From Octopus vulgaris (taxonomy: Eukaryota), in assembly GCA_951406725.2 (NCBI GenBank), contig OX597826.1:22258001-22322000 (forward strand): a DNA stretch of 64,000 bases, written 5' to 3'. Both the position numbers and the translations under genes were made by a program. Shown one piece after another: positions 893 through 61,208 of this stretch; the first letter of the stretch is position 1, and the number at the start of each line of letters is the position of its first letter. Under the pieces are notes generated by a model. The model had not been told where the DNA came from, made no database searches, and saw nothing but the letters and a program-made list of their open reading frames with translations.

Positions 893-1044
893 CTGCAGTG
901 TACCACAAGTGGTCCAGTTTCTGCCTCAGAATCATTACGAATTTTCATCATGAAATTAACTAAACCTGTTGGAGTTGGAGGAACTCCATGATCTGACCAG
1001 GAGGTAAAGTGAAACTGATCCAGTTTTCTCACTGGTTCTTCACC
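893..1044 (-). CDS. RPTP exon, WPD-loop region and start of HCS signature (152 nt, phase 0-2)
   Basis: ttttag acceptor, gtaaat donor; GEEPVRKLDQFHFTSWSDHGVPPTPTGLVNFMMKIRNDSEAETGPLVVHCS. The next exon (AGVGR) is not in the window. Confidence 0.96.
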
Positions 1045-1116
1045 CTAAAATAGAAGATGAGAGAATATGAAACGACAGTGCTCAGGTGAAACAATGTTCT
1101 GTATATTGTTGTGGGA

Positions 1117-1434
1117 TTGCAATGTTATTATCAGTCCAAATATGCTTGATGCATGTTCAAATTGGGCAACAAGTGACTCACTGCATTTTGTCATGGAGAA
1201 TATATCTGGCTAGTTGACAAATGGTGTGTATATACTTAGACCAGCTTGCAGCACTATCCGTCTAGGCTGTGAGATGCTAGCATCTTTAGGTAGATGGCAC
1301 TGTGAGTTGATCTAGGTGTATACACACCATTTGTCAACAAGAGAGAGATATTCTCCGTGACAAAACGCAGTGAACAGCTTGTTCCCCAGTTTGAATGTGC
1401 ACCAAGCATACTCGGACTGATAATAACATTGCAA
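1117..1434. mobile_element. Foldback/MITE-like element, ~318-bp imperfect palindrome
   Basis: Left arm ttgcaatgttattatcagtcc...ttgacaaatggtgtgtata aligns over ~145 nt with the reverse complement of the right arm ending ...ggactgataataacattgcaa. Confidence 0.8.
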
Positions 1435-1499
1435 ATTCACTTATTACTGCTTAGTGCTTCCCCTCCGCTCCATAATTGTTGATCACATTATTTGTTAAT

Positions 1500-2878
1500 G
1501 CCTCGTTATCCCTCATCCCAGGGTCTCACAGGCCCACACCTCCCACACCCTCAGAGTTGGCACATTGAAAGGTAGGTCTGGTGAGATTGTTGAGCTGCTT
1601 GAACGGAGACGTGTAGATTTGTGCTGCATCCAAGAAGTAAGGTGGAGAGGAAGTTCCACTAGATTCCTCTATAAGATGCACCAAGTGTAAGCTATGGACA
1701 CATAAGAGGTGCAGCAATGTCAAAGGAAGGCTAACTAGGAAGATAGTTTTTGTATGTGGCAGATGCTCAGGAGCAATAAATACTGAAAATGCACAGAGAC
1801 CAACTTTCGCCACATTCCAGGGAGAAAAACTAGAAGTAGTTGATAGCTTCCATTACCTAGGTGACCAAGTCAGTAGCAGGGGCAGGTGGGCTGAAAGTGT
1901 AACGGCTAGAATGAGAATAGCCAGGGCAAAGTTCAGGGAGCTCTTACCTCTGCTGGTGACAAAAGGCCTCTCGCTCAGAGTAAAAGGCAGACTGTATGAC
2001 ATGTGTACGAACAGCCATGCTACATGGCAGTGAAACATGGGCCGTGACTGCTGAGGATATGCATAAGTTCGCAAGAAATGAAGCCAGTATGCTCTGATGG
2101 ATGTGTAATGTCAGTGTTCATATTCGACAGAGTGTAAGTACCTTGAGAGAAAAGTTGAACCTAAGAAGCATCAGCTGTGGTGTGCAAGAGAGACGTTTGC
2201 GCTGGTATGGTCATGTGGTGAGAATGGATGAAGATAGTTGTGTGAAAAAGTGCCACACCCTAGCGGTTGAGGGGAACCTGTGGAAGAGGTAGACCCAGGA
2301 AAACCTGGGACGAGGTGGTGAAGCACGACCTTCAAACATTAGGTCTCACCGAAGCAATGACTAGTGGCCGAGACCTTTGGAAGTATGCTGTGCGTGAGAA
2401 TACCCAGCAGGACAAGTGAGACCATAACCCATGGCCTCTACCTGGGATGTAGCCGGTCCACTTATGCATACCTTTGCTTCTTGGGACACAAAACTCTACT
2501 TGCGAAGACCTGTTGAGGCAAGTGAAATCGAAATCGAAATCGATCAAAATCAATGGAAATTGTAGCTGTGATACCAGTGCCGGTGGCACGTAAGAAAACC
2601 ACCAGAATGTGGCCGTTGCCAGCGCTGCCCCGACTGGCCTCCGTGCCGGTGGCATGTAAAAAGCACCATCCGATCGTGGCCGTTGCCAGCCTTGTCTGGC
2701 ACGTAAAAGCCACTCATTACACTCACGGAGTGGTTGGCGTTAGGAAGGACATCCTGCTGTAGAAACACTGCCAGATCAGACTGAGCCTGGTGCAGCCTTC
2801 TGGCTTCCCAGACCCCAGTTGAACCGTCCAACCCATGCTAGCATGGAAAGCAGACGTTAAACGATGATGATGATGATG
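1500..2878 (+). mobile_element. RTE-clade LINE, internally deleted and decayed, with PHD-type finger fragment and tandem-repeat 3' UTR
   Basis: Endonuclease N-terminus (VGTLKGRSGEIVELLERRRVDLCCIQEVRWRG) is fused at ~1669 to CTKC..H..C..CGRC, then LEVVDSFHYLG, KGRLYD, RLRWYGHVVRM and RGRPRKTW; ends in a (GAT)n tail. Confidence 0.9.
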
Positions 2879-3399
2879 TAAAGATGACAATTAAAAATAT
2901 ACATTATCATTATAAGTGATTTAAAAACTGTTTTACTCTTTAATCTTGCTGGGGGCAAGACAACCTGTTTAGTCTGTTACAATGATGAAATACATTCCTA
3001 AAGTTGTTGGCAAATGAACATGGAAGACTGCAGGATAGTGATGGTTTTAGTGTTGCTAATGGCAGAGTCTCCATAATAAAATATACCCAATGCACTCTGT
3101 AAAGTGGTTGGTGTTAGGAAGAGTATCCAGTCACATTATACTTTATTGACTACTACAAAGATGAATAGTGAAGTTGACCTTGGTGGTGCAGAAATTCAAA
3201 ATGTAAATGGCTATAACTAAATATCACACATTTTGTTGAATGCTCCACCACCTATCTGCCACTCCACACCCATTGTAAAATCCCATTGCTCTGACAGCCT
3301 TGTTCTAATATCTTCAGATTAGACATTGCAACTGCCGTAGAAGTGAATTCTAATCACATTTGTAATTCAAAAGATTACAGAAGAAAATATATTTGGTAC

Positions 3400-3519
3400 C
3401 TTTTGCAAAAAGAATGATCTGATGGTAAAATCACTGAAGTTTTGCTCTCGTATACATCGAATCTTTAAATCTCCAGAAATTTTGACTTCTTTATCTGGCC
3501 AATACTTTTCACATTTTGT
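3400..3519 (-). CDS. RPTP exon, PTP motif 7 (120 nt, phase 0-0)
   Basis: tttcag acceptor, gtacca donor; TKCEKYWPDKEVKISGDLKIRCIREQNFSDFTIRSFFLQK. Confidence 0.93.
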
Positions 3520-3665
3520 CTGAAAATTTAAAAGTAAGTATAATCAAAGATGATTTATTCACAATGAAGTTTGAATATGGAATGAAAAGCTTTGCATATA
3601 TGCTAGATGAATGATCAGCATATATGTTACATGTATATACACAGAATTTGGGATATATATATATA

Positions 3666-4066
3666 TATGTATTTTGATCTAGTTTGGATTCTTTGCCATC
3701 AAATTTGAATTCTTTGCAATCAAATTTGAATTTTTCAATTGGTGCCCAAGCCTTGAAGAAAAAAAAAGAGTTAAACTACATCAGCCGTAAGGGAATACAT
3801 GTCTATCTTATCTAACTCGTCCAGTAGAGCCCACCAATTGATATCTGGAAAGTTCGATGAAATAACTCATGAACACTGCCATAGCTTCTACCAAAAGATG
3901 CTTCAACATATTTACGTCGTCGACTGGTCTGAACAATAAACAAATGATTCTTTTTTCTATTATCTCCCCTTGTTCAGACTGGTCGTCGTAACAGAACGAA
4001 TTGAGCACCAACTGAAAAATTCAAATTTGAATGCAAAGAATTCAAATTAGATCGAAAACATCTATA
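3666..4066. mobile_element. MITE with long TIRs (same family as 21930-22244)
   Basis: Terminal inverted repeats (gatctagtttggattctttgc...aaatttgaatttttcaattggtgc / gcaccaactgaaaaattcaaatttgaatgcaaagaattcaaattagatc); the internal sequence matches the 21.9-kb copy in reverse orientation. Confidence 0.8.
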
Positions 4067-4169
4067 TTACATATAAATTTGAATCTAAATTGAATTGATT
4101 AAATGAAAGTTTAGTAAAATAATTGCTTCTGAAACTAGAAGTGTGCAAGACCTACATAAAAGTAATATC

Positions 4170-4984
4170 TACAAGGTCTGATTTAAAAGTATCAAGACTG
4201 TTGCTATGGTGACTATTGCTAAAGTATACAGAATGAAGCTGCTTCACACAGATTGACCTTGAGCTCTGCCATCCATGCACATTAAGTTATAACTCACTTC
4301 CGTTGTTTATAACAGTGCTTAGAAGTAAAATGTGTAGAGTGTGGTTATCTAATTGAGAAAATTGAGCAGAGAATTCGTATCAAATTTTGCCAAAAGCTTG
4401 GTGATGATTCCTGCACAGGGACCCATGTAAATTTGCAGAAAGTGTATGGAAAGGACTGTATGAACCGAGCACAAGTGTGCCAGTGGTTCAAATGTTTCCA
4501 AGATAGCTGACACATGTTCTGGAAAGACTGTTGAATCACCATGCATGAGTTGTTTGAGGCTGTGTACATTAGTTCAATCCTTTCCCATTGAAAATTTGGG
4601 TATGAGACATATGTCTGCCAAGTCAACTGCATTCAGTTGCAGTAGCTTTTGGTTAAACACAACATTCCCTAGATCTGACAATCACTATATTCCCCAGATC
4701 TTGCTCCCCTTTCCCTGTAACTTCATTCACTTTCCAAAAACAAAATCTCACTTGAAAGGAATAAAATTTCAGGACTTCAAGGAAACCAAGAGAACGCAAT
4801 GAAGCAGCTATTTGCTATCCCTCAAAAAGGAGTTCCGGGAATTCTTCTATCAATGGAAACCATGCTGGATAACATGTGTGGCTTCAGAAAAAGATCACTT
4901 AGATGGAGATTAAACACTGAATTGATCTGTATTGTAGTTTTCTTTTTATAGCACCAATTCTGATTCTTTTGATCAGACCTTGTA
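4170..4984 (+). mobile_element. Mariner (Tc1/mariner) relic with internally deleted transposase
   Basis: TA|caaggtctgat...aaaag TIR and ...cttttgatcagaccttg|TA; translated fragments EQRIRIKFCQKLG...QVCQWFKCF (HTH) and YSPDLAP. Confidence 0.88.
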
Positions 4985-5462: not shown

Positions 5463-5848
5463 TATAAGTGAAGAGAGAGAGAGAGAGAACAAGAAATAAA
5501 TGACAAAGAAAAAAACAAAGCTCACAAAGCATCATTGCATATCTTGTTGTATGGTAAATCTATTGACTTCCTCCGAACAGCTTTGCACAGAAATAGTTAC
5601 TGAAGAGTTTAAATAAACTGGAGAATTGATGTAAATAAAATAATTTCCTTCTGGTTCCTAATTTCAACTTTGCTTTTTGGTTAACCCTTTCATTACCAAC
5701 AAGCATCAGACAGTTTGATGCCATCTCCCAGTTTCAACAGTTAAACATTGTGAACATGATAAAACATGACAAACAAAGAATGATCAAAATGTAATTATTT
5801 TATGAAACTTTACGCAAAGATAAGATTCTGACTTTCTGGTCTATTAAA

Positions 5849-6250
5849 CACAGGCCAGTCGGGGCGGCGCTGACAATGGCCACGTTCGTAAGAGAACATC
5901 CGAACGTGGCCATTGTCAGCGCCGCCCCGACTGGCCTGTGCCGGTGGCATGTAAAAAGCACCATCCGATCGTGGCTGTTGCCAGCCTCGCCTGGCCCCCG
6001 TGCCGGTGGCACGTAAAAAGCACCATCCGATCGTGGCCATTTGCCAGCCTTGTCTAGCACCTGTGCCGGTGGCACGTAAAAACCACCCACTACACTCACA
6101 GAGTGGTTGGTGTTAGGAAGGGCATCCAGCCGTAGAAACATTGCCAGATCAGACTGGGCCTGGTGCAGCCTTCTGGCTTCCCAGACCCCAGTTGAACCGT
6201 CCAACCCATGCTAGCATGGAAAGCAGACGCTAAACGATGATGATGATGAT
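5849..6250 (+). mobile_element. 5'-truncated RTE 3' UTR insertion with 5' inversion
   Basis: Near-identical to the 3' UTR at ~2575-2878 (gtgccggtggcacgtaaaaagcacc units; ...ccatgctagcatggaaagcagacgctaaacgatgatg); begins with a perfect 40-bp inverted repeat. Confidence 0.88.
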
Positions 6251-6873
6251 AAAGTGAGTATTTATAACTTCTTGATGATCAGAGATCATGCCGACTCAAA
6301 GGCGTTAAATTGGCAGAATTGTCAGAGTGGTGGACAAAATGTCTTGCAGTATTTAACTGAGATTCTTTAAAGCTTGAATTCAAATTACATTCTGAGTGAA
6401 AAACTTTGCCTTTAATTCATTTGGTATTGACAGTTTATTGTATCTCAGTTAAATACTGAAGTTGATTTAATATTCCTATAAAACACACTAAATGTGAATT
6501 AAATTATAATACAAGAAAAAGACAAACAGTTTAGATATAAACATTGTCAATAAGCACTAATGAATTTGCATATTTAGTGAAGGCCTAAATAACTAATACA
6601 TAGAATTTCTGTGATGAGAGCAAGTCTTCAAATTAAATATCTTAGAAATCAGTACTCTACTAATGCTTCTTTTAGCAACCAAACTCAAAAGCAAAGCTAG
6701 TTGGGGTTCAAATTCAGAATGTAAATGGATGTAAATACTACAAGGTATTTTGTCCTCCATTTTGCAGATTCTAGCAATCCTGCAAAATCAAAACCTCAAT
6801 AACAAAAACCCATTTTCATCTAAATTCACCCCAAAACATTTCAGTGAATACAAAATTGCTATCATTTACTTAC

Positions 6874-7008
6874 TTTGCCTGTTTCAATCAAATTGGTTAA
6901 CATGACTAACTTGGTGCAATTTACTTGCCACAACATTTGCCAAAAGTCCGTAATGATCGCTGAAGTGGGTCCTTGAGAAGCAATATATTTCTTTGGTTTA
7001 TTAAAACC
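6874..7008 (-). CDS. RPTP exon, PTP motifs 4-6 (135 nt, phase 0-0)
   Basis: ttatag acceptor, gtaagt donor; GFNKPKKYIASQGPTSAIITDFWQMLWQVNCTKLVMLTNLIETGK. Confidence 0.96.
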
Positions 7009-7302: not shown

Positions 7303-9505
7303 AATAATAATAATAATAATAATTTATTCTTTTTATTGGCCACAAGGGCTGACACACATGATTAGAAAACATAAAGGGACAAAACAGGATGAAAGGTTAC
7401 AAAGGGTTTTGTCCGTTTATGAAAAAATTCGAGTAAAAACTGTTTAACAACGAAAGATTGTAACAATGAAAAAAACTCCCAATAGGGGGAGGCGCTTCGA
7501 AAGGTTCCTGGTGGAAAAAACACCATAAAAGCCAAAGGGAGCCTGGTCAAAAGGGGGGTAGAGAGCCCCTTTCTCCTTTTATAATACCCTTTTCAATCAC
7601 AGGCGAAACCTGAGAACTGGTCCATTTATACTGGCCATTCTCGCACAATTCACCCACCTTTCAGAAAACTTGCTATCGGACAGCACTCTCCTCTCTAACC
7701 TCATCTTCCTTTTCAAGTGAAACTTGAAAAAGTTGATGAGGCCTTGACCAAAGAGGAAAGTGTCTGACTTTAGCCCTTTCAAACGGGTCCACCATACAAC
7801 CTCTTTCGCCACAGCCACTAGGCACAAGAAAATGGCCTCGCCCTCCTCGTTAAAGGAGGTCGGAGGGGGCAATCTTCACTATGGATTCGGCTGATAGCCG
7901 GATCCGTCCTACACGTGACAGTAGCTGTTCAACATAAACCCATAGTTCAGCAATACTCGGGCACTGGACGAGTGCGTGCAGAACGGTTTCGTCGTCCTGG
8001 CAACACCTTGGGCAGGCCCGGCTGACGGCACTTCCGTGCCGGTAGAGTTTATCCCGAACAGGCAGAGCCCCTCGGTAGCACTGCCAGGCGAGCGACTTCT
8101 GGAAATTATCCATTGGCTCCGGCCCGAAAGTCCTTCCGAACAGACCGCTCAGTTCGTTATCGTCAACACCTAGAGTTTCCCCGAGAATGTCGTCGCATTT
8201 TTCCTCCACTAACCCTCTATAGAACGCTAGAGTGGAGCTGAAACCGATCGCATTGCCCGCCTGGCGGAGGGCGGAGAGAGCTTGACGGCACTCGAGGTGT
8301 CAAGCGCCCTTTCTCGGTCTACGTTTGATCCAGGTCTGCAGCTCTGTCAAAGAGATGAGCTGCGGAAAGTCGCGTCTGACAAAAGACGACCACACCTGTA
8401 CACCGTCTAGGAAACGCTTGAGATGTCGCAGCCTGAGCGCATGTCTGCGCATCAGTAACCACGGCATTCCAAGGCCTCCGTTCAGTGGTCGTTGACAGCA
8501 GATGGATCGCCTGACCAGTGGCACCTGACCCTTCCAAAAAAAGTCGAAGAGCAAGCGTACCAGCTTGGCCAACCAGCGGTTGAGACAAGGGACGACAGTC
8601 AAGCGGTAATAGATGACGGATGCGATGTACGCATTCGCCACCTCCGCTCGACCTTTCAGGGACAGCTTCCTCTCGGCCCATTTCTGGGTGAGACGTGCCA
8701 CCCTGCTTGTCACCTCTTCCCAGTTTTTATCCACCTGGAGGTCCGGACCGAACTAAACCCTGAGCAGTTTAACGGGTCCATCTGTCCAGCGCCCTACGAC
8801 GCTGTTGGACGGCATGGGCTTGCCTCTCCAGGTGCCCAGTTGCAAGCCCACAAACTTTTCTGCGTTAATCTTTGCCCCTGTCACCACTTCGTACTCGTTT
8901 AGTGTCTCACCAATCAGGCCAATGTGCCTGTTGCTCGACACCATCACGGTGATGTCGTCAGCATAGGCAGACACGCTGTTTCCGCTTCCTAGATCGCGCG
9001 GGATACCCCTCAAAGCCTCCAACTTGCGCAGCAATGGCTCGAGAGTCAATATGTACAAGAGGAATGAGAGAGGGCATCCTTGGCGGACCGAACGCGAGAT
9101 GTCGAACGGTTCCGAAAGGTGACCGTTCACCCGTATCACCGAGCAGATGTTGCTGTATAAAGCAGCGATCCACCCGCGGAAGACTGGACCGAAGCCAGCT
9201 GCCTTGAGAACACCTGTCAGGTACCGATGGTCGACCCTATCAAAGGCTTTACTCTGATCTAAGTTGATCAAAGCCCCACCCGCGCCAGCGTCGTTACCCA
9301 CCCTATCTATGATGTAGCGCATGAGATGGAGGTTGTCGTGTATCGACCTGGTCGGCACAGCGCGTGTCTGCGTCTTGCCGACCAGCTTGTCCATGACAAG
9401 CGCCAATCTCTTGGCTAGCATCTTGGCCAAAATTTTCAACTCTGCATTGAGCAGAGTGATGGGCCGAAAATTCCCTATAATGTCCCCCTTGTTTGGGTCC
9501 TTTTT
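7303..9505 (-). mobile_element. Tx1/L1-clade LINE, ORF2 3' part (RT plus CCHC zinc knuckle), frameshifted
   Basis: ORFs 8753..9439, 8300..8734, 7850..8209 and 7597..7872: FRPITLLN, LDQSKAFDRV, SVRQGCPLS, YADD, GGLG, CPRC..ETVLHALVQC; the 3' end abuts (TAA)n. Confidence 0.92.
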
Positions 9506-9746
9506 TAGCCATCCTCTTCATAGCCATTTTGAAAATTTGTGAGTGAAATGTATACAAAAGTCAAATATTAAACAGTGATTTTACCCCCAATGGGGTAAAA
9601 TTTTGCCTAGCCAACTAGCTCCGCAAGAAGTTAGTTGGCTTGGCCACACAAATATCGAAAAATATAAAAACTTTACACAGGATTTCTAACAAAATTTGCA
9701 GAAAACTTACGGAGCAGCTTCGCACATGTCCGTTGTCTCGGAAAGA

Positions 9747-10937: not shown

Positions 10938-13476
10938 ATCCAGTTATAAATACTTGGGAATACTTCAGGCAGAAGGAATTAGACACAACAATATGAAAGA
11001 AAATACCAAGAAAGAGTCATTATCAGCATTGTTTGACCGTGGTCGAGACAATGGAATTTACTATGTTATGCCAGACTTCACGGTCCATCATAGCATTACG
11101 GAGATCCTGTTGCTGGATGCCTGTATCCCTGGAGATTACATCAGGGTAGGAGAGTGTACGCCCTCTGGTATCGCGAGCAGATGGCTTCCAGAGGAGAAGA
11201 GTAGAAATTACCTCGTTTTCAGCTCTACAACAATGTCCAGCAAACTGGACTCTTCTACCTTTCACAAGAGATGATATAGGTGGTAGTTTCCCATATATTT
11301 GTACTTTGGTTGGATGACGCTTCCACGAGAGATTTTGAGCTCTCATAAGGAGGCGAGTGTAAGTTCCATCCAACTGCCTCTCAAGCTTCTTTGATAATGT
11401 CCACGTTTCTGAGCCATATAGTAGAATTGGTTCGACTGTGGCTTTGAAGATTTTAAGTTTGAAATCTCTACTTAGATTTGATGACCAGATCTTATGCATA
11501 TCATTACAGGCTGACCAGGCCATACCCTTTCTAGTTAGAAAATCTTTTTCAGATGATGATATGTATAACCCAAGATATTTGTAATCAGAAACCATATTTA
11601 AGGGCGTATTTAAGAGAGTATGGATGATGAAATCACTGTTGGACAGGCACTTGTTTACATATTCAGTCTTGGACAATTTCAGATGATGATATGTATAACC
11701 CAAGATATTTGTAATCAGAAACCATATTTAAGGGCGTATTTAAGAGAGTATGGATGATGAAATCACTGTTGGACAGGCACTTGTTTACATATTCAGTCTT
11801 GGACAATTTGAGGCTTGTTCAAGAGATTGTAAAAGAGACTGGGCATTGGAGAGAGAATCACTGATAAGAAGAGTAGGGGCCAGAGCAAAGCTTCTAATTC
11901 TCCAAATGTCATCAAAGCCAGAAACCATCTAAAGTCTATATCACTAGCTTACCACCGTTCTCCATCCCAGTCACTAAAGACCTAGCTCATAACTGCCAAG
12001 AAGAATCTTGATGAGGCTTACTTGAACGCTGAGGTTGACTTTATCAACGGCAAAATTAGCAAACTATCCAAAGATCACATTAGTAAAAAACACCATCTTG
12101 CCTGGAAATCCATCAAAGACCTATTAGGTAAAAATTCTGGGTCATCAATTAGAATCAAAGGGGGATCAGCTAAGAAGCGTTTAGAAAATTGATCAATTCA
12201 TTTTAAAAACCTTCTTGGAAAAAGAAAGAGTAGCTGCAGTGAGTGAGAAAAATATTGGCTTCAGAATTGCATGTCAGAAATATAATTTCCTCAATAAACT
12301 CACAAGCAGTCACAGTAGTTTGGTACGGTGCTGGAATCCTGAAGTGGACATAAGAGGAGCTAAAGGAGTTGGATAGGAAGTCAAGAAAGCTCCTAATGAT
12401 ACATAGAGCCCATCATCCACATGCAGACACTGTTTGCCTATACAGGGAGAGAGCAAATGGAGGAAGAGGACTAATAAATGAGGAAGACTGCTTACATATT
12501 GTCCTCAGGAACTTAATGAGATACCGATCCCAAAGTAAGAAAACCTTGCTAGTGTCAGTTAGGAATGAGGGAGTTTTGAAAGCAGAGAAAAAAAGGAAAA
12601 ACAAAGAAGTACAGAAAGGACATGAAGAAGAATTACACAACAAGGGACAACACAATCAATTCCATGTGGCCACAACAGAAGTTTCTGGAAAACAGGTAGG
12701 ATTGGCTGAAGGAAGAACACTGAAAAAAGAGATTGAGAGCATTATACTGGCAGTGCAAGACCGAGCTTTGGCCATGAATTGAAGGGTCAACCTTAGGAAT
12801 GAGCAAGTGTCTCCACTGTGCTGCATCTGTAATAGAGTGGATGAAACCATTACCCATATTGCGAACAAATGCCTTAGGCTTGTCCAAAACGACTACAAGT
12901 TGTGGTGACACAATGAGATAGCGAAAGTGCTATATTGGAAACTGTGAAAAGTGGGGGCTAGAGAGAGGCAAGATGTGGTATGAGAACAATCCACAGAAAG
13001 TGAAAGAGTTGGAGACCTGCAAAATCCTCAGGGATTTCCTAATCCAAAAAGATCAGGTGCTAAAGCATAACAGACTGAACCTAGTGACGGTGGAGAAGAT
13101 GCACCACATGTCCTATTGAGTTGATGTTGCATGCCCCTTTGACCCATGGATAGTCAAGAAGCAAGGTGAAAAAATAGATGTATATACATCCCTCTTAAGT
13201 ACCAAATAGCCCGGCTATAGAAAATGAAGAAGGTGAAGATAGGGCCAATTATTGTTGGGTCCTTGGGAACAGTATCAGAAGACATCAAGAGAAATATAAA
13301 GGAAATTAGATAGAGAGCCCAGTAGAACTGTTACAAAAGTTTTGTCTCCTTGGCACAGTAAGAATAATCAGGAAAGTATTAGATAGCTGAAAAGAATGGC
13401 CAGCATAGCATCATAGGCTGCAGGCAGTAAGTCTACGATGTATGCATGACTCCAAGAGTTACAACAAAACCTGAGA
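10938..13476 (+). mobile_element. R4/Dong-like (RLE) non-LTR retrotransposon, 5'-truncated and decayed, split by a nested LINE
   Basis: SYKYLGILQ...KKE resumes after the insert as VRKILASEL..YGAGILKWT..LDRKSRKLL..GGRGL, AVQDRAL, CCIC..ETITHI..C and DFLIQKD..VDVACPFD; (TAA)n lies at both flanks. Confidence 0.85.
11018..12221 (-). mobile_element. RTE/RTEX-like LINE insertion with 5' inversion and 10-bp TSD
   Basis: TSD aagaaagagt at 11008-11017 and 12222-12231. The minus part 11018-~11868 encodes the RT C-terminus (YKYLG, LLYGSETWTL, FAGHCCR). The plus part ~11866-12221 encodes the EN-RT linker (AWKSIKDLLG..HFKNLLG). Confidence 0.88.
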
Positions 13477-15036: not shown

Positions 15037-15110
15037 ATCGATGTAATTAGCATTGATATAGTCAGAATCACTATCTTTGCATTTCTCCAAAATCACTCGT
15101 GAATGATCAT
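15037..15110 (-). CDS. RPTP exon, PTP motifs 2-3 (74 nt, phase 1-0)
   Basis: ttgtag acceptor, gtaagt donor; YDHSRVILEKCKDSDSDYINANYID. Confidence 0.96.
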
Positions 15111-15210: not shown

Positions 15211-15298
15211 ATGCAACAATATTTTTATATCTATTCTTTGCTTTATTTTCCTGCAGATTGGCAGCTTTGCATGTTGCTTCAGTATTCTGGGATAATCT
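15211..15298 (-). CDS. RPTP exon, PTP motif 1 (88 nt, phase 0-1)
   Basis: tttcag acceptor, gtaagt donor; RLSQNTEATCKAANLQENKAKNRYKNIVA (KNRY pTyr-recognition loop). Confidence 0.95.
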
Positions 15299-16251: not shown

Positions 16252-16409
16252 CCTGTATTCAGCACCGAAACCCCCTTCAAAATTTCGTTTATTTTGAATG
16301 TATGACTGAAGTTCATCGACTGGGATGGAATCAGGAATAATGATATCATTTTCTCCAACATTCATATAAATAATTTCATCCTCACACTGGATATCAGCAT
16401 TGCTGCCAT
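16252..16409 (-). CDS. RPTP exon, juxtamembrane 2 / PTP wedge region (158 nt, phase 1-0)
   Basis: ccactag acceptor, gtgagt donor; DGSNADIQCEDEIIYMNVGENDIIIPDSIPVDELQSYIQNKRNFEGGFGAEYR, with the IPV-EL...F--EY pattern that precedes RPTP D1 domains. Confidence 0.87.
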
Positions 16410-27800: not shown

Positions 27801-28594
27801 CATAATCTTACTGTAGTAATGAAAGAGATGGAAAATTGGAACCTGCTTCAATTTTACTGAATTAATAAACTAAATAATAATGATTACAATAATAAAACTG
27901 ATCCAGTTATTAACATTTACAAACTGATCTCTTGTAAATATGTGAGAAAACCAAACCATACCTAGAACCTCCATAATTCCAAATTGTAAACGCAAACCAT
28001 GGTTTGATGAAGATTGCAGGGATGCTATAAAAGAGCGAAAAAAAAAAAGGCGGAAAGAAAAATTCAAAAAGGCATCCCAATGAATGTTAATCTGAAAAAA
28101 CGTAACAATGAGATGGAAATCGAGATGAGCTTATAAACAAGAAATCTATAAAGGAAATATGTTTCTAAAGTAAAAAACCAAAAGACAAAGTAAGACATTA
28201 TAGAACATGGCAGGTAGAAAACATTAATGAAATTTCTTTTCCACAGGTTTCAAAGGGAGAAATGATTTGCTGGTAGATTCTTCTAAAGTGAAGAGAAATT
28301 GACAAGTATTTGGTGGGTTTACAGTTCTGAGTTTGATTTCTACCAAAAAATATCTGAAATAGTAATCAACCAATAAAGAAATGAGTTATGTCTGGTTATG
28401 AATATCCTCATTAAAGGCAACACCAAAGTAAAAAAAAATAAACAAAGGTGAAGATAGGTGAGTAAAAAACCTGAATGAATTATTTCTTAAACTCTTTCTG
28501 ATTGAAATGTTTTTTCTGAATGAACAAATATTAAAGTAAAATCAAATTTGTAGAATAAGAAGGAAACGGTAGACATGAAGAAGGTTGAAATGAC

Positions 28595-28728
28595 CTGTTA
28601 ATCTCAGTCCTCCATTTGTTTGATCCGACATCAAATGATCTGATTCCTCAGCATGTTCAACTGTACCCATTGCAAATGCTTGTTCTGCAAGAAGTTTTGG
28701 AGGTTGTGTCTTTGGACTTCGAAAATAT
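28595..28728 (-). CDS. RPTP exon, juxtamembrane 1 (134 nt, phase 2-1)
   Basis: Long pyrimidine tract plus ccgccag acceptor; YFRSPKTQPPKLLAEQAFAMGTVEHAEESDHLMSDQTNGGLRLT. The donor CAG|gtcatt is weak but phase-compatible with both neighbours. Confidence 0.72.
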
Positions 28729-33932: not shown

Positions 33933-34035
33933 CGGAAGCACAAAACACATAATATGAGGATGATGATATTTGCAACAAGGGCTGCTGTTAAGATGTGAAA
34001 CATGTCAAGCTGGGATTGTTCTCCACTCTGAATAA
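33933..34035 (-). CDS. RPTP exon, transmembrane helix (103 nt, phase 1-2)
   Basis: ttttcag acceptor, gtaaaa donor; VIQSGEQSQLDMFHILTAALVANIIILILCVLCF-R, a hydrophobic run of ~22 aa followed by Arg. Confidence 0.88.
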
Positions 34036-38559: not shown

Positions 38560-38697
38560 CTTTCGAACAGTGTGTTCCTGTATAACCTAGGATACATCCT
38601 TCTAAACAAGATCCATTGAAATGTTGGCATGTTTGGTTATAACAGGTGTGGTTACATTTCTTGGAACAATCTTGCCCAAAGTAGGTACGAGGACATG
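38560..38697 (-). CDS. RPTP exon, EGF-laminin repeat 7 (138 nt, phase 1-1)
   Basis: ttacag acceptor, gtaaga donor; ACPRTYFGQDCSKKCNHTCYNQTCQHFNGSCLEGCILGYTGTHCSK (also in ORF 38468..38719). Confidence 0.94.
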
Positions 38698-41555: not shown

Positions 41556-41693
41556 CTGTGATGCAAAGTGGATTTAGATAGCCAGGTTCACAACCTTTAT
41601 TACAAAACCCAGTGACATGGTGACATTTTCCATCTACGCAGTGTTCACTGCAAACTGTCATGCATCCACTTCCATAAAATGGATGTTCACAAG
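41556..41693 (-). CDS. RPTP exon, EGF-laminin repeat 6 (138 nt, phase 1-1)
   Basis: tttcag acceptor, gtttgt donor; SCEHPFYGSGCMTVCSEHCVDGKCHHVTGFCNKGCEPGYLNPLCIT. Confidence 0.92.
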
Positions 41694-43543: not shown

Positions 43544-43681
43544 AGGTATCACATCGTTGACCTTGGTACCCAGGATTACAATATTTCGTGCAATGTCCAT
43601 TGACATGATTACATTCCTGATCAACACAAAATTTACTGCAGTTGTTTAAACATCGGAAGCCATATTTGTTATTACTGCAGG
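43544..43681 (-). CDS. RPTP exon, EGF-laminin repeat 5 (138 nt, phase 1-1)
   Basis: ttgcag acceptor, gtaagt donor; TCSNNKYGFRCLNNCSKFCVDQECNHVNGHCTKYCNPGYQGQRCDT. Confidence 0.93.
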
Positions 43682-43976: not shown

Positions 43977-44114
43977 TTGAATTACAATAGTGTCCTTGAT
44001 AACCTGGCACACATCCATTAATACAACGTCCATTTATGTGGTTACAGGTTTGACGAAGACAATTTGCACTGCATTTCCTAGTACACTGGTAACCATAAGT
44101 ATGTCGGTTACATT
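43977..44114 (-). CDS. RPTP exon, EGF-laminin repeat 4 (138 nt, phase 1-1)
   Basis: ttacag acceptor, gtaagt donor; KCNRHTYGYQCTRKCSANCLRQTCNHINGRCINGCVPGYQGHYCNS. Confidence 0.93.
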
Positions 44115-46733: not shown

Positions 46734-49084
46734 TCTCTTATGATAAAAGGCAGATTTTCTCTGCCTCCCAAACCGTTCGTTTTTTATACAACTCTACAAT
46801 ATAGAATTTCTTCAATTGGAATTTACCTATCATTTTTCCAAGTAGATTCCATTGGGTCATGGCATGTAAAGTTTTTTCAGTTTCACCCCCAATTAAGCAA
46901 AAATTCGAGAAAACTCAATATTTTACGATTTCCCTCTTTCATTTCAAGTGCTTCACTCCTACCATTACCACTACACTTTCTCCTCCTTTCTCTTTGCAAT
47001 TGTGCAACAATTAAAGTGAAAGTATTTATATAAAAGGGATGAGCAATTAATACTAGTCATCCTTTTTGCTAGAAGAAGATCCACTATGGTCTTATATGCT
47101 ACACCACTCGTTTTCAATTCATATTAATCAAATTAATATTAAATTTTTCACCCTTATTATGTGTGTGTGTATTAGCAATTCGTATAAAATTGCATCAATG
47201 ACTTGAACTTGAATAAGTGGTTTCACATAAATGGGGATACATTAAAAAGGTTTGTTGTTATTATTATTACTGTTTGACTATTGTAATCACGTTTGTTGGT
47301 TCCTCGTCAGGGAAACGTTGTTGTGTTGCATTTGTTAAATAATTGTAAACCGTAACCCTCCCCCTTTCGGAGAAGGGTCTTTGGTTATTGTTTTAAAATT
47401 GAATTGTGTCCCTGTTTGGGGAAATTGACAATATTTTCACCGTCTTTACGGAAGCATTTTTGTTAAAATGCCTTCCATAGAAGAAAGTCCAAAAATGAAT
47501 TTCGCTGCAGCCGTACAAGAGGGAGGACAAGATCCAATTGATCGAAATTGCAAGAGACAGGCCTACAATTCCAGTCTATTATATATTTTGAGTATTGTTA
47601 TCACTAGCGATATCAAGATATAACTTTCTGTTTTGTATTTTATGTGTAGATGTATATATATATATAGATGTACATGTAATATGTACACATATATATACAC
47701 ATATATACATGCATAATATATCTACCCATACACACACACGTACACATATACATAGGAGCAGGTGTGGCTGTGTGGTAACAAACTACGTTCGAAGATACTG
47801 TACTTGATATGGGCGGTAGTGCCTTGCCGGTCTATGACCTACCTTCAACAAACCGGGAAGGCACAAACACTCTGTCTTCACATTTGCTGCGTGAGACATG
47901 TTTTAATGTTGACGAGCTTGCCGAGTACATAGCCGACAATGAGCCAAAGCTCCTTCCAGAACAGAAGTTCGCTTACAACTCTGTTGTTAATTTAGTCCGA
48001 GCCAAAGCTGTGGGGATATTTTTCCTGGACGCTCCTGGGGGCACTGGGAAAACTTTTGTCAACAAATTAATATTGGCTGACATTAGGCGAACACAAGGCA
48101 TTGCCCTAGCTATGGCATCATCTGGAATTGTGGCTACTTTGTTGCCAGGCGGCAGGACAGCTCACTCCACTTTCAAGCTTCCGCTTGACTTAGCGAAGAC
48201 TGAGACACCAACTTGCAACATCAGTAACAGCTCCGATCAGGCAGAAGTCTTCAGATGATGCAAGCTTATCGTTTGGGATGAATGCACGATGGCCCACAGA
48301 GGTGATCTTGAGGCACTAGATAGATCTCTCAGAGACATCAAACACTCTTCAGCTCCCATGGGAAGCATAACACTTCTTCTTTCAGGGGACTTCCGACAAA
48401 CACTTCCCATTATTCTCAAAGGGACTAGAACTGATGCAGTAAGTGCTTGTCTTAAGTCATCCACATTGTGGCCACTGGTGAAGACTCTCAAACTTCACAC
48501 CAATATGCGTGCTCATATCAGCAGCATTTTCTCACACCCTCCTTGCACTTGGCGAAGGCAAAATACCAGGGGATGAAAATGGTAATATTGCCATCGATTC
48601 CATTTGTACCATTGTTAAAACGCCTTCTGATCTCAGAGATGCAGTGTTCCCAGATCTACAAGCTAATTATCAGAATATGGATTGGATTGGCCAAAGGGCT
48701 ATTCTGGCCCCAAGGAATAAAACTGTTCACCATATTAATGATGAAATGCTAAACTCATTCCTGGGGATGTCTATGTATATAAGTCTATCGATACAACTCC
48801 TGACCCAGAGGACGTCATCAACTATCCAATAGAGGTACTCAATTCCTTTGAGCCCCCCGGACTACCACCACACATTCTCAAACTTAAAGTTGGTGCCCCT
48901 ATAATGCTCATTAGAAATTTGGTTCCCCCAAAACAATGCAATGGCACACGTTTGATCGTTAAGTCCTTATCTCCCACCGTAAACTTATATCAATATTTGC
49001 CTGAATAATCATCATAATTCAGTGCAATCATTAATAGTACTTTCAAGCAATTCAGCCCCGAGCATCGCCAGGCAATTCTGCTAG
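46734..49084 (+). mobile_element. Helitron (deletion derivative) carrying a RepHel PIF1 helicase fragment
   Basis: Candidate 5' A|TC at 46734; 3' imperfect hairpin cccgagcatcgccagg then CTAG|T at 49081-49085; helicase inside. The 5' boundary is less certain. Confidence 0.72.
47779..48980 (+). pseudogene. Helitron RepHel PIF1-family helicase fragment (stop and frameshifts)
   Basis: FFLDAPGGTGKTF (Walker A), ASSGIVATLLPGGRTAHSTFKLPL, LIVWDECTM (Walker B), GDFRQTLP, RAILAPRN, GLPPHILKLKVGAPIMLIRNL..CNGTRL. Confidence 0.93.
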
Positions 49085-49210: not shown

Positions 49211-49348
49211 TGGCTAGGCAGTGGCCACCTTTGAAACCAGGCAAACAGCCTTTTGTACAATTTCCAGTCTCATGATGACAAAGTTGGTCAATGCATGTCT
49301 CACTGCAATTCTTATTACATCCAATGCCATACGTATGGCGGTAGCAGA
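49211..49348 (-). CDS. RPTP exon, EGF-laminin repeat 3 (138 nt, phase 1-1)
   Basis: ttctag acceptor, gtaagt donor; VCYRHTYGIGCNKNCSETCIDQLCHHETGNCTKGCLPGFKGGHCLA (also in ORF 49194..49397). Confidence 0.94.
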
Positions 49349-51096: not shown

Positions 51097-51234
51097 CTCT
51101 ATCACATTGATTTCCGATGTAACCTGGTTGGCAGCCATTTGTGCAATAACCAGTTATATGATGACAAACACCATCAAGGCAGCCAGAAGGACAGGATTGC
51201 TGACAATCTTCTCCATATTTGTCTTCTGAACATT
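51097..51234 (-). CDS. RPTP exon, EGF-laminin repeat 2 (138 nt, phase 1-1)
   Basis: ttatag acceptor, gtaaag donor; KCSEDKYGEDCQQSCPSGCLDGVCHHITGYCTNGCQPGYIGNQCDR. Confidence 0.93.
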
Positions 51235-52346: not shown

Positions 52347-54963
52347 GAACATGGAACGTAAGGGGGATGAACATTGGGAAGTTGGACACCATCAAGAAGG
52401 AAATGAATCGGTTAAACATCGATATCCTGGGAGTCAGCGAAGTTCATTGGACTGGCGATGGTTTCTTCAACTCTGGTGATCATACAATGTACTTTTCGGG
52501 CAATAGCAAGACCAGACAACATGGAGTGGGATTTGTTCTATACAAGAAAATATCCAAGTGTGTTGAAAGTTACTAGACCATGAGTGATCGAGTGATTACC
52601 ATTCGCATCAAAGCCAAACCCAACAACATCACATTGCTACAAATCTACACAGCAACTGCCGACGCCGAAGAAGATGAAATTGAACAATTCTATGCAGAAA
52701 TTCAGGGCGCAATCGAGGAAACATCACGAGCAGATGTTGTGTATATTCTGGGAGATTTCAATGCCAAAATTGGAGAAAGGGCAGAAGCAGACATCGTTGG
52801 CAAATTTGGATTAGGAGAACAGAATGAAGCAGGAGATCGACTGGTCCAATTTTGTCAAGAACAACACATGTGTTTAACCAATACTTGGTTTCAGCAACCA
52901 AGAAGAAGGTTATACACTTGGATATTGCCAAGTGGACAGTACCGCAATCAAATCGACTACATCCTATGTCAGCAACGGTGGAAGAGTTCAGTCCAAGCTG
53001 TGAAGATGTTCCCTGGGGCAGACTGTGGATCTGACCATGAACTTCTGGTTGCTAAGATCAAGATGCGACTCTGCAGCATCAAGCGACCACTCGCTTACCA
53101 GAAATTTGATACCAGCAAGATCGGTCCATCATATGCCGCTGAGATCAGAAACCGCTTCGAACTGCTCGCCATCGAAGAGAATCAAGAAGCAGAAGAAATA
53201 TGGGAGAAGGTGAAGGAAATTGTTGCTGAAACAGCAGAGAAACATGTACTGTACAAGAAACCCATACGATCAGCAAAGTGGATTTCGGAGGAGGCTATTA
53301 CAATAGCAGAAGAAAGAAGGAGAGCAAGGATGACCAGAAGCAGGGATGAAGTGCGGTGCCTGAATGCAATGTTCCAACAGGCCGCCAGGAAGGACAAAGA
53401 GAAATACTGGAATGAGGAATGTGCAAGGGCAGAGGAGGCATACAGGAAAGGGAACATGAGAGAACTTTACCAACATGTAAAGAAGACCCGTACAGCATTC
53501 ATGGCCAGATAAGCAACCATCCGAGAGAAAAAAGCCCCAGGTACTGATGGTATTCCACTAGAATTACTCAAGTCAATACCAACACAAACACTAACATTGC
53601 TTTGCCAACGAATATGGAGAACCTGTAAGTGGCCAAGGGAATGGAAGAGGTCAGTTTTCATCCCAATACCAAAGAAAAGAGATACCAAGGACTGCGCAAA
53701 CTACCGTACCATCATCCTGATCCCCCATGTAAGCAAAATTCTCCTTAAAATCATCCAGAAGCGCCTGAACACAACTATTGAGAGAGAATTGCCAGAGGTG
53801 CAAGCTGGTTTCAGAAAGGGAAGAGGCACCCGCGATCACATCACCAACCTACGGTGGATTATGGAAAAGGCAAGAGAATACCAAAAGCAGTACATGTGTT
53901 TCATCGATTACTCCAAAGCCTTTGACAGCATTGATCATTACAAGTTATGGAAATATCTGGAGGAAATGGGAACACCTTTACACCTTGTCCAGCTTATTAG
54001 ATCACTCAATCAAAACCAAGAGGCTACAGTACGGACACCATATGGCGACACTGATTGGTTTGAGATTGGAAAAGGCACTTGGCAGGGTTGCATCCTGTCA
54101 CCAGCAGCCTTCAACATGTACGCTGAAAAGGTCATGAGGAATGCAGGCCTGGAGGATAGATGCATTGGAGTGAGGATTGGAAGAAGAAATATTAATAACC
54201 TTCGCTATGCAAATGATACAATCCTGCTGGGGGAAAAGTGGTAAGGATCTGGAGGATCTTGTCCTGCTGGTCAAGAAAGAGAGTGAGAAATTTGGGCTGT
54301 ACCTCAATGTTAAGAAAACGAAGATCATGTCAACAGCAGCCACAACAAACATCAGCATCAAGATCGATAATGAAGAGATCGAAGTGGTTGATGATTTTAT
54401 CTTCCTTGGCTCCAAAATAAATCGAGATGATGACTGCACTCCAGAAATAAGACGGCGGATAGTACTAAGCAGAGAGGCAATGGTCAGCATGAGCAGGTAC
54501 TGGAAGAGTAGAAACATCAGACTCGCTACCAAATGCAGATTGGTGAATGCAATTGTCTTCCCAATAGCAACATATGGATGCGAGACCTGGACACTAAAGA
54601 AAGCTGACCAGAAGAGAATTAATGCATTCGAGCTTTGGTGTTGGAGAAGACATTTACGGATTCCATGGACAGCGAGGCTCACCAATGGAGAAGTTCTTAA
54701 GCAGATCAGGCCGAAAATGTTGCTAGAAGCTAGGATCACCAAGCATAGATTGGCATATTTCGGTCATGTTATGCGGAGAAAATCCCTGGAGAAGGACATC
54801 ATGCTCGGAATGGTCAGTGGCAAGAGAGGAAGAGGCCAACCAAGAACCCGCTGGCTTGACACCATCAAGAGGGATACCGGAATGGACATAGCCAATAGAA
54901 CTGACTGGAGGACACTGATCCAACGAGTAACCGAGAGTCGACTTCGACTGAACGGATAGATAG
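52347..54963 (+). mobile_element. RTE (BovB-like) LINE, near-complete ORF2 (APE plus RT), inactivated
   Basis: GTWNVR, LGVSEVHW, GDFNAK, NQIDYIL, SDHELL, KAPGTDGI, NYRTI, QAGFRKGRGTRDHI, DYSKAFD, QGCILSP and YAND (mutated YADD). Stops at 52576 and 53512, linker deletion ~53520, frameshift ~54240. (GATA)n tail; TSD attcacttg at 52338-46 and 54964-72. Confidence 0.95.
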
Positions 54964-55858: not shown

Positions 55859-55873
55859 ATATAATATAATATA

Positions 55874-55912
<39 letters not shown>

Positions 55913-56353: not shown

Positions 56354-56403
<50 letters not shown>

Positions 56404-57620: not shown

Positions 57621-59567
57621 CACAGACAGAAGGTCAAAAATTTGTTAATGAATTCATCATTCACAGTATCTAAGTGTAATGATAACAAATATTTCGGTGT
57701 GAATGCAAATAGCTATTACTTGGTAGCAGGGCATGCTAGAAATAGCAAAAGGAGCCATTTATGTGTGATTTCAATGTCACATTTGTTGAAAGCATGCAAA
57801 ATAACCTGGAAAAGAAAAAAACAGACCCACGAAATAAAATTCCCTTGGTGGGAAACTTCGAGGTCCTACCACTCCTCCCACCTTTCTTTGCCAGAAGAAA
57901 GTGGATTGTGGCAGGTTTGGAGGTCAGATATGTTGAATGCCCAAAACTATGAAAAAAATTATTTCACACCGAGATATGAAATATTTATTGAAAGAATAAA
58001 ATGTTGTACTCATTATACCTGTATTTTAATTAATTCAAATTGATGTACCTCATCTTGAAAAGTGGCAAAATTTTTGTCAATTGTAACCTGGGATAATTTT
58101 AGTAACAAATCAAACAGGTAAGATGCATTAAGAATTTCAATTTTAGTATTTATCCATAATGTTATTGCTTTTACACCTGCTAATCAAATTTACTCAGCAA
58201 GATCAGCTAAAATTACATAATCAGTGGTATATAAAGCACCCACTAACAAAATTTAAAATCTGTATGTAAAAAATTTACAAAGTTACAAGCAAATATTGAA
58301 CCTGAATAATTCAAAATAATGTGAACAAAATAAGCATTATATTTGACAGATTCATATGAACACTAAAGATGTTTTTAGGTGTTTTTTCTTACACACACAC
58401 ACATAACACAGCCTCACTCAGTTGGGACTACATGTGTATTACTTTGACCTCATCATCCCATAAAATTTGTTTATGGGAAGAAAAATATTGAAAACTATTA
58501 ATAGATGTATGAGTAAGAAAGGTACAAGGAGGGAGGTTTCGGGATGTGCTAGAAACGACAGCCATATCGCCCTTAAATCACACATTTTCCTCTGAAATTA
58601 TTAACAATTTTCTTTAAAACCAAAAATGTTTCTCTCACAGGTTTTAAGTGCATAGTGGAAAAAAAAGGCCAAAATTGGACTGGAGTGGTAGAGGGTAACA
58701 GAAATAAAAAAAAAAATTCAAAATTTTTTCTTTTTTTTTCCAAGAAAAGATGCCTCCCGTCATTCTGAAGACTCTAGTGAAAAACATTGGAAAATGGAGA
58801 AATTCCAACTTATGTGGGCTGTCTGATTCGAAACTCTGTTTTTCAGAAATTCCTCCCTCCTGTGAACTTCCAAAAATTTTGCCAAAAATTTCTTTGTAAT
58901 TGTAATCTACACTCTTTGAAAAGTATTTATATAAAATGTCATTAAAAAATACCTATTTTCCAGAAAGTTATGAGGGGCGAAATGTAGGGCCCTGTGACAC
59001 ACACACACACACTTACATGTGTACATACATACGTCATGTTCATCCATCAGAATGACCGGGACCATTTAGCCATCCTTCATTCTTAAGGGTCACCGATAAC
59101 CTCTCTGATGACTGTTTAAAGTGAAGAAAAATTGTGCATGGTCAACTTTATTCTCTCACCTGTGACCCTCTTCAATCCAATCATAAGACCAGGTGAAGAT
59201 GACTGGAGATGGAGATAGATGCAGTAGATGACCAAGATGCCTTACTTGCCTTATCTTGCCCTCTGTACTTTACAAGACATTGCTTCAGCCACCTTCTGTT
59301 GACCCATGAAAGTTTCTTCATGAAAAGAGTCTGCCAGAACTAGTCATCATCACATGCATAGGTAGGCAAGCCCTAGTATGCTAATTAATCCATAACTGGG
59401 GCCTTGACAGGTGCTACTACTCCTGGTCAAAGTAGATCTGGGATTAAGAAGTGGGTCCACACACTGCAAAACCTTGGAACTCCCAAATCAGGGCCTCTCT
59501 ACAGGATACAGTTTAAAGTCACACTCTGGACAAGTATGTGGGGGGAAAATTGATTAAAGCTTTTAAC

Positions 59568-60754
59568 TCTGTGCCACACAAAAGACTTATGGTGAAGCTT
59601 TCTGTGTTGGGTGTAAGAGACGAACTCTATAACTGGTTAAAGTCCTTTATTTTCGGCCGAAAAGAGGTTGTCACAGTTCTAGGACAGCACTCTTCGCCCT
59701 ATGAGATGACATCTGGTGTGCCGCAGGGATCTGTTCTTGGCCCCCTTTTATTTGTTGCATATGTTAATGACATAGATGCCAACTTAAAGAATGCCACAGT
59801 GCTGAAATATGCAGATGACATCAAGCTGTACCTCGAAATAAAGAGGTCAAATCCTGTACACTATGGATCTCTATTGCAAGCAGACCTGGACACAGTGCAG
59901 CAGTGGATCATGGACTGGCAACTCAAGCTGGCTGTGGACAAATGTACCACCATGCATTTTGGGAGGAGAAACCCAGTGTCCACCTACTCCCTCCACAACA
60001 CTAGTCTCAAAAAGTCTTCAAGTGAACGCGACCTGGGTGTTATTGTCGACAGTGATTTGCGTTGGACAAAACACATCACTAAAATTGTCAAGAAGGCTGA
60101 GGGTGTCTTGGCATCACTCACCAAATCCTTTGTGAGCCGCTCTCCAGCTATCTATCTGCGGCTTTATATAGCTATGGTAAGACCTCACCTGGAATTTGCA
60201 TCACCGGTCTGGAACCCCTATCTTGCCAGGACATCAATCGTCTGGAAGCTGTTCAGCGACGTGCAACCAAAAGAATACCCTCCATCAGGCATTTGCCATA
60301 TCCTGAACGCCTTACTTCCCTGGGCATGGACACATTGAAACTCTGACGTCTGGCAGCTGACTTGGCAGACACCCATAAAATTATCAACCATCGCACAAAC
60401 AATAACTCTGAGCACCTCTTCAAACTCCACCCATCTAACACCCGTGAACATATTTACAAAGTAAGAAAACAGCACAGCTCCCATGACTTCAGGAAACATT
60501 TTTTCACGCTGAGAGTTGCTGAAGCGTGGAACAAACTGCCGGCATCGGTTGTTAGTTGTCGGAGCACTGCATCCTTCAAAACTTCCATGCTTCCTGAGAT
60601 TCGCCAACACTACACTTGATTTTCTCCCCTCCATACACACACAAGCATGTTCACTTTCCAGACATTTCTACATTACTGCATGTACTTTATATGCACTTTC
60701 TGACAAGTTGTGGGGCACCTGAGCACTGTATACAATAATTTCATTATTATTATT
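59568..60754 (+). mobile_element. CR1-clade LINE, 5'-truncated
   Basis: KAFNSVPH, SGVPQGSVLGPLLF, YADDIKL, ERDLGVIVD, VRPHLEFASPVWNP and FFTLRVAEAWNKLP; (ATT)n tail; frameshift ~60235. Confidence 0.93.
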
Positions 60755-61073
60755 CATATAGAAATACTCGGCAGTATTAACGTCCAGGAGAGTTATCTTT
60801 CCTTACATTGGTGTCTCTTTTGCACTTTGTATCTTAGAACAAGGATGAAATAAATATCAAAGTATTTCAATTGATATAATTGACAAAAATCTTTGAAAGT
60901 GATGCTCCAGTATGGCCATAGGCTAATGAGTAAAACCAATAAAAGAATTACAAGTAGACTTAGCATCAAAATAAAAGACTGTGAATGTTTTAAGAGATTG
61001 GGGAAATAAGAAACAACAAAAACAAAGACTTTGTTTTTATCTAAAACTAAAATTTATCAGAAAGACGACTTAC

Positions 61074-61208
61074 TTGTGTAACAGTTGCTGCCTTTCCAGC
61101 CAGGAATACAACCATCAAGACAATCACCATTAGTGGAATTACATTTTGTCGGTTTCTTGCAGTGACATTCTCTGCTGCAGTTTTCAGAAAACCACCCACT
61201 GTTGCAAT
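61074..61208 (-). CDS. RPTP exon, EGF-laminin repeat 1 (135 nt, phase 1-1)
   Basis: attcag acceptor, gtaagt donor; CNSGWFSENCSRECHCKKPTKCNSTNGDCLDGCIPGWKGSNCYT (8 Cys). Confidence 0.92.

Follow-up and report, generated by a model that had tools for sequence, protein, structure and literature searches.

Introduction

Receptor protein tyrosine phosphatases (RPTPs) that combine MEGF and galactose-binding domains with one transmembrane helix and tandem PTP domains are encoded at a schistosome-resistance locus of the snail Biomphalaria sudanica, with 3 such genes plus 14 more, and the accessible part of that report presents a dimer/occlusion model for this receptor layout and discusses an immune receptor role (PMC12297450). 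In the accessible part of a second report the same layout, with MEGF10/SREC signatures, is named 'scavenger class F-like subgroup 1C' (PMC13712769), which places it at two schistosome-resistance loci of Biomphalaria snails. The present analysis concerns a gene on the minus strand of a 64,000-nucleotide stretch of Octopus vulgaris DNA (assembly GCA_951406725.2, contig OX597826.1, positions 22,258,001 to 22,322,000; hereafter the window, with coordinates counted from its first letter). By its domain layout the gene belongs to the molluscan family of lectin-MEGF receptor phosphatases, an architecture already described, and with a probability of roughly 0.75 its product, as read from the sequence, is a type-I receptor of this family that likely acts as a ligand-regulated phosphatase.

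The snail receptors of the SudRes1 type or subgroup 1C share with the octopus protein the galactose-binding/fucolectin-like domain, the MEGF10/SREC repeats, one transmembrane helix and two PTPs, but their genes are clustered paralogues that have gained and lost EGF domains and sit beside antistasin genes, whereas the cephalopod sequences form one conserved clade with a WSD acid loop. The novelty implied by an initial annotation of the window, made from its letters alone, is not supported, as the layout is widespread and in print as an immune receptor in Biomphalaria; that annotation had itself named orthology to an already characterised receptor of this architecture as evidence against its proposal, and such receptors are largely at hand as far as architecture is concerned, with a function shown for no member in the accessible parts of the two reports (PMC12297450; PMC13712769).

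Two further groups of receptors share one half of the protein each. Draper/CED-1/MEGF10 and SCARF1 (SREC) are built from the same 8-Cys EGF unit, with ectodomain matches at E 1.9e-40 and 3.6e-14, while the octopus receptor adds enzyme domains and a lectin-fold tip and does without a juxtamembrane NPxY. Members of the Draper/MEGF10 family have an N-terminal EMI domain and a non-enzymatic tail with NPxY. An EMI domain was matched neither in P0003, where the lectin-fold domain sits in its place, nor in the Draper control P0044, and no NPxY lies between the transmembrane helix and the first phosphatase domain (D1), where P0044 has NPVY. Assignment to the Draper/MEGF10 family was rejected on account of the tandem PTP tail and the missing juxtamembrane NPxY, and without the latter nothing points to engulfment signalling of the Draper kind. 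Vertebrate R2B phosphatases (PTPRK/M/T/U) share the tandem PTPs and are the best D1-only matches in the PDB, and the R2B-like motif HCLNGGGRSG of the second phosphatase domain (D2; P0065, P0079) resembles HCLNGAERSG of the octopus; they differ in their MAM-Ig-FN3 ectodomain, which is absent from P0001, P0003 and P0005, while MAM and FN3 were detected in the control P0079.

The exon chain and its orthologues

The minus-strand exons were located via a six-frame scan, which returned seven Cys-rich frames and several frames with PTP motifs. From 61208 to 893 all 15 exons are flanked by AG acceptors and GT donors in matching phases, and joined they span 1,927 nucleotides (nt), read as 641 codons free of stops, or 642 codons when the split first one is counted; this join matches the 642-residue product and the junctions from 38560 to 34035, 28728 and 16409 that had been proposed before. 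The product is ordered into seven EGF units, a short stalk, a transmembrane helix, about 115 juxtamembrane residues and D1 up to the active-site HC. The earlier statement that the repeats run straight into helix and phosphatase needs correction for D1, which is set off from the helix by the juxtamembrane residues. Seven phase-1 EGF exons of 135-138 nt are followed by those for the transmembrane helix (103 nt), the juxtamembrane part (134 nt) and the wedge (158 nt) and by PTP exons of 88, 74, 135, 120 and 152 nt.

61074..61208, minus strand: EGF unit 1 exon, 135 nt, phase 1/1 (splice join and Cys count)
51097..51234, minus strand: EGF unit 2 exon, 138 nt (splice join and Pfam scan)
49211..49348, minus strand: EGF unit 3 exon, 138 nt (splice join)
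43977..44114, minus strand: EGF unit 4 exon, 138 nt (splice join)
43544..43681, minus strand: EGF unit 5 exon, 138 nt (splice join and Pfam scan)
41556..41693, minus strand: EGF unit 6 exon, 138 nt (splice join)
38560..38697, minus strand: EGF unit 7 exon, 138 nt, membrane-proximal (its end is fused to the transmembrane helix and PTP in P0002)
33933..34035, minus strand: exon for short stalk and transmembrane helix, 103 nt (hydropathy; helix in structure model)
28595..28728, minus strand: juxtamembrane exon, 134 nt, with the non-consensus donor GTCATT; the unspliced frame runs to a stop
27962..28024, minus strand: cassette exon, 63 nt or 21 residues, phase 1/1, in X1 and not in X2 RefSeq isoforms
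16252..16409, minus strand: exon with YxN motif and the wedge region preceding D1, 158 nt
15211..15298, minus strand: PTP D1 exon with KNRY loop, 88 nt
15037..15110, minus strand: PTP D1 exon DHSRV-YINAN, 74 nt (PF00102, E 8.6e-06)
6874..7008, minus strand: PTP D1 exon YIASQGP-DFW, 135 nt (PF00102, E 4e-13)
3400..3519, minus strand: PTP D1 exon KCEKYWP, 120 nt (PF00102, E 1.7e-4)
893..1044, minus strand: PTP D1 exon with WSD acid loop and catalytic HC; the gene runs on below the window (PF00102, E 1.5e-11)

The gene occupies the entire 64-kb window, which holds its middle only: coverage breaks off inside the active site of D1, where HC and S are split, and at 61.3-64 kb of the window there is no exon for the first 214 residues at the N-terminus. 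The initial annotation missed the 63-nt cassette exon; the N-terminal lectin fold and D2 lie outside the window.

The product is identical (641/641) to residues 193-833 of the public Octopus vulgaris model CAI9731681.1 and agrees with O. sinensis at 638/641, with O. bimaculoides at 624/641 and with Argonauta at 571 positions; given this identity and the near-identity to other octopods, the exon join is not due to chance. Searching with the wedge exon led to a RefSeq protein of Octopus bimaculoides whose cluster includes 8 named octopod models, filed as PTP kappa, T or U-like, which contribute a signal-peptide-like N-terminus, a 130-residue domain and one further EGF unit upstream of the window and the remainder of D1 plus D2 downstream. 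The protein P0002 (715 residues; longest contig 3,259 nt) comprises the last 20 residues of EGF7, the transmembrane helix, the juxtamembrane part, D1 and D2, and belongs to a cluster of 42 members, the 15 listed being all from Logan with contigs of 2.6-4.2 kb. As the same span takes up more than 37 kb in the window, proteins of the P0002 type are most simply explained as coming from spliced transcripts in a relative, and their sequences support EGF and PTP parts of one gene. Together with the octopod models, 8/8 of which span both parts, they sustain the proposal of a single gene, and judged by its sequence this is a real octopus gene, one reading frame of which encodes EGF repeats, a transmembrane helix and a tyrosine phosphatase. 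The 21 extra residues of the X1 isoforms map with 100% identity to the cassette exon at 28024-27962; in proteins of the P0002 type the 63-nt exon is replaced at this junction by about 4 additional residues.

EGF repeats and transmembrane helix

All seven EGF units contain 8 Cys in 42-43 residues. In a Pfam scan of the seven exon frames, PF00053 matches 2/7 and any EGF family 4/7, with no EGF match at the curated cut-off, and the former label 'EGF-laminin' is a loose one. With a threshold of 15 bits, a profile built from the 7 units recognises 7 units in a Draper, 4 in a SCARF1 and 0 in PTPRF, PTPRK and PTPRE, in agreement with the Draper/SCARF type assigned initially. Full-length orthologues have 8 EGF units versus 7 within the window. 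The repeats are old, since the six 138-nt exons are 49-59% identical pairwise in DNA. The best hydrophobic window of the product is at residues 335-353 (Kyte-Doolittle value 2.95), and the structure model of P0006 has the transmembrane helix at 503-527.

From tip to membrane, the seven units are identical to those of Argonauta at 33/45, 29/46, 32/46, 38/46, 41/46, 43/46 and 46/46 positions, which amounts to 132/183 for EGF1-4 versus 129/137 for EGF5-7 (Fisher p 1.8e-7); for O. bimaculoides the same comparison gives a Fisher p of 0.017. Identity to Argonauta is 98/132 in the lectin domain and 244/250 in D1, and D1 is identical to that of P0002 at 207/250 positions. At the level of sequence the distal divergence is what a conserved base carrying a variable recognition tip would show; relaxed constraint would look alike.

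Phosphatase domains and juxtamembrane region

Of the five frames from PTP exons, four exceed the cut-off of PF00102, and the orthologue P0001 has two PF00102 stretches (E 1.4e-141), D2 being located outside the window. With all 15 exons in phase, at least seven tandem 8-Cys EGF repeats, a transmembrane helix and a classical PTP are present as predicted. D2 contains HCLNGAERSG and no acid-loop Asp, a combination usual for a regulatory D2, and is by its sequence probably a regulatory pseudophosphatase. YxN motifs, which would be Grb2-type SH2 docking sites, are found before D1 and at the C-terminus.

D1 displays KNRYK, WSD, HCSAGIGRSG and VQIEDQY, with catalytic Cys and Arg, acid-loop Asp and Q-loop Gln retained. 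Its acid loop reads WSD in 23/23 cephalopod sequences, many of which are near-identical, versus 3/153 others, while 140/153 non-cephalopod sequences have WPD. According to the accessible part of a review, PTP1B and SHP2 become activated when the WPD proline is lost (PMC13714419), and since the catalytic motifs are kept in addition, D1 is probably catalytically active.

The N-terminal domain

The 130-residue domain upstream of the EGF repeats of the orthologues is predicted by modelling to have an F-type lectin fold. The model (predicted local distance difference test, pLDDT, 70.5) has the fucolectin 3cqo as its top Foldseek match (E 5e-5), VIA gives, as its top matches, Z 13.3 for 3cqo (root-mean-square deviation, rmsd, 3.2; 127 aligned) and Z 11.9 for 1k12 (rmsd 2.3; 119 aligned), and Atlas feature matches are with an F5/8 cluster (0.93) and a fucolectin cluster (0.92). 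A custom profile of the galactose-binding domains of 14 relatives scores the octopod domain at 8-10 bits, the best of 200 shuffles reaching 6.1. The full-length fold search has PTP structures exclusively among the matches listed.

F-type lectins bind fucose through the motif H-X24-R-X-D-X4-R/K, as given in the accessible part of PMC5712786; the accessible part of PMC8226959 yielded the motif only. The octopod domain shares with them the predicted fold, the hhDG cation-site motif (VVFDG, VVIDGN) and the His, but the R-x-D-x4-R/K part with the arginines is missing in 3/3 octopod sequences. Strict fucose motifs are also missing in most mollusc relatives. As the arginines are absent, fucose binding is unlikely, and the modelled tip likely binds another glycan or a protein.

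Distribution and phylogeny

With the ectodomain as query, 26 of 1,314 candidates matched, and many of these pair EGF repeats with PTP; the species are oysters, scallop, clam, abalone, Bulinus and the annelid Dimorphilus. Shorter relatives of the N-terminus were sought among 128 candidates and yielded 3 matches, none of them the complete ectodomain of a P0002-type relative. PF22633 occurs with EGF and PTP in proteins of Crassostrea, Ostrea, Argopecten, Haliotis, Mercenaria, Bulinus, Sinanodonta, Potamilus and Liolophura, and the lectin-MEGF-TM-PTP-PTP layout (TM, transmembrane helix) thereby spans bivalves, gastropods and a chiton, in line with the caution of the initial annotation that similar fusions may exist in other molluscs. 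Counted by pattern, 48/153 non-cephalopod tandem-PTP relatives carry 8-Cys repeats, the sample being skewed by the queries, and others have FN3, Sushi, kringle or TSP1 domains; as the ectodomains differ to this extent, their shuffling on this PTP module is common in invertebrates. The EGF-PTP pairing extends past molluscs, since 8-Cys EGF units with PTP were seen in the annelid Dimorphilus (P0041, 8 units) and the starfish Asterias (P0108, 2 units plus FN3).

In alignment, proteins of Littorina and unionids (P0201, P0054, P0205) read as EGF-X-MEGF-TM-PTP-PTP, with a kringle-like segment, which has no Pfam match at 1e-5, replacing the lectin fold; two of them have WSD and the third WPD. Further RPTP ectodomains (P0067, P0089, P0088, P0087, P0096) display fibrinogen-C with Ig/FN3 (amphioxus PTPRA-like), Sushi with ricin-B, TSP1, WSC, and kringle with Sushi.

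Among D1-only PDB chains PTPRK, PTPRT and PTPRM rank first (304, 303 and 290 bits), among tandem chains PTPRS, LAR and PTPRA. Trees were calculated with FastTree on 153 rows, 23 of 176 having been dropped by name as redundant or multi-domain, and with IQ-TREE on 50 hand-picked rows that include no Biomphalaria sequence. In the latter, four cephalopod rows form a starred clade (100) with a stem of 0.75 and short tips among molluscan proteins, outside a starred 20-row group that holds vertebrate R2B, LAR and PTPRE. The topology test weakly rejects a joint clade with R2B (p-AU 0.024; the tree was a quick one and the group was named after earlier results had been seen). Neither FastTree (153 rows) nor IQ-TREE (50 rows) resolved the sister group of the cephalopod clade. 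Two kinds of candidate were rejected, namely P0053 of Littorina and P0054 of Potamilus, top phmmer matches with WSD, as orthologues, because they do not group with cephalopods, and a clear PTPRK/T orthologue as the database name has it, because MAM, Ig and FN3 are missing and the tree, at weak strength, separates the protein from R2B.

In a literature search that covered main texts only and few subscription journals, no paper on the cephalopod or octopus gene was found. The literature searched also returned no biochemical study of any family member and no match for R2B exon structure, an oyster MEGF10-PTP expansion or PTPRLec, a sea-urchin class. PMC13619432 names, in its accessible part, MEGF and RPTP transcripts and is silent there on this architecture.

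Repeats in the introns

The introns contain LINE-type (long interspersed nuclear element) remnants at 7850-9517 (minus), 52577-54956 (plus) and 59517-60335 (plus), with RVT_1 in three frames and an endonuclease match at 52577-53509; a frame at 11026-11727 (minus) has a weak DUF6451 match only. At the start of the intron after EGF exon 3, a broken PIF1-like helicase in three frames (47779-49005, plus) is likely a Helitron fragment. Fragments of Mariner/Mos1 transposases (HTH_48, Transposase_1) are located at 4313-4507 (plus) and 29973-30719 (minus). Two copies of one repeat, one with a weak PHD-finger match, at 1641-2290 (plus) and 61345-61850 (plus) are probably LINE 3' remnants, and another repeat recurs near 2550-2890, 5800-6280 and 13500.

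Discussion

As a ligand-regulated phosphatase the receptor may work in the following way. The EGF rod would hold the lectin-fold tip away from the membrane, and ligand binding or clustering at the tip and the distal repeats would alter receptor dimerisation. The changed dimerisation could in turn alter the access of D1 to phosphotyrosine substrates and damp kinase signalling, with the YxN motifs docking SH2 adaptors. By analogy with the snail receptors, an immune or surface-recognition role would be the most likely setting, with the odds somewhat in its favour.

Several observations weigh against this reading. The cephalopod intracellular part is strongly conserved, unlike the duplicated variable snail loci, and the immune analogy may fail. 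In the tree, a clade with the group of Bulinus P0037 is neither recovered nor rejected (p-AU 0.178), the backbone being unresolved. For the lectin-fold domain, Pfam has no match in the octopod proteins, the score of the custom profile is weak, though above all 200 shuffles, and the alignment behind the fold model consists of hand-chosen lectin-bearing relatives, a possible bias. A C-terminal YxN is equally common in relatives without EGF repeats (71/105) as with them (32/48), and the octopod RefSeq models that join the exons are automated predictions.

The best-placed alternative, still a tentative one, is that the cephalopod receptor is a conserved cell-adhesion or neural-wiring receptor, R2B/LAR-like, with a protein ligand on neighbouring cells. 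The single starred cephalopod clade with its long stem and short tips, the WSD loop in every cephalopod sequence, the R2B members leading the D1-only ranking, the missing fucose motif and the presence of one octopod cluster only among the 26 ectodomain matches would all suit such a receptor; the distal repeats, on the other hand, diverge faster than the proximal ones, as for a variable recognition tip (relaxed constraint would do the same), and absence of a strict fucose motif is shared by most mollusc relatives. A less probable, rather speculative variant combines both settings, in that one member of a molluscan immune family prone to fast shuffling would have become, in coleoids, a single conserved receptor for self/species recognition or neural wiring; a fixed WSD, a lost fucose site, a spliced juxtamembrane switch, a fast-diverging tip and no vertebrate counterpart would then belong together, and the WSD loop would, if this is true, possibly be more active than WPD.

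That the WSD loop disables D1, the receptor being a pseudophosphatase scaffold which signals through phosphoprotein binding, is improbable: the WPD of most non-cephalopod relatives is indeed replaced in every cephalopod copy, but the acid Asp, catalytic Cys and Arg, KNRY and Q-loop Gln are all retained, one unionid has WSD while its close relative has WPD (P0054, P0205), and loss of the proline is activating in PTP1B and SHP2 in the accessible part of PMC13714419.

Most improbable of all are separate EGF-TM and PTP genes, or a PTP-less receptor as the main product via read-through of the 28728 exon, for although its donor at 28595 is non-consensus, the frame continues (28595-28545) for 17 codons to a stop that would leave a phosphatase-less receptor, the next constitutive exon lies 12 kb off and PTP-less relatives are known (P0025, P0026, P0031, P0032; subgroup 1B in the accessible part of PMC13712769), no evidence was found that a read-through isoform past 28595 is produced, P0002 and aligned cluster members as well as all octopod models join the juxtamembrane segment to wedge and PTPs, and both sides of this junction are conserved (84/96 identity to P0002).

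With the lectin-MEGF receptor phosphatase as the preferred reading, a class of receptors linked in snails to schistosome resistance is extended to cephalopods. Database names such as PTPRK/T/U-like and MEGF10-like mask one molluscan family with a variable tip module, which is a lectin fold in the octopus and, as read from alignment, a kringle-like segment in the proteins of Littorina and the unionids. Being well conserved and having a WSD loop by nature, the cephalopod member would lend itself as a model in which to find the ligand and the substrates of the family.

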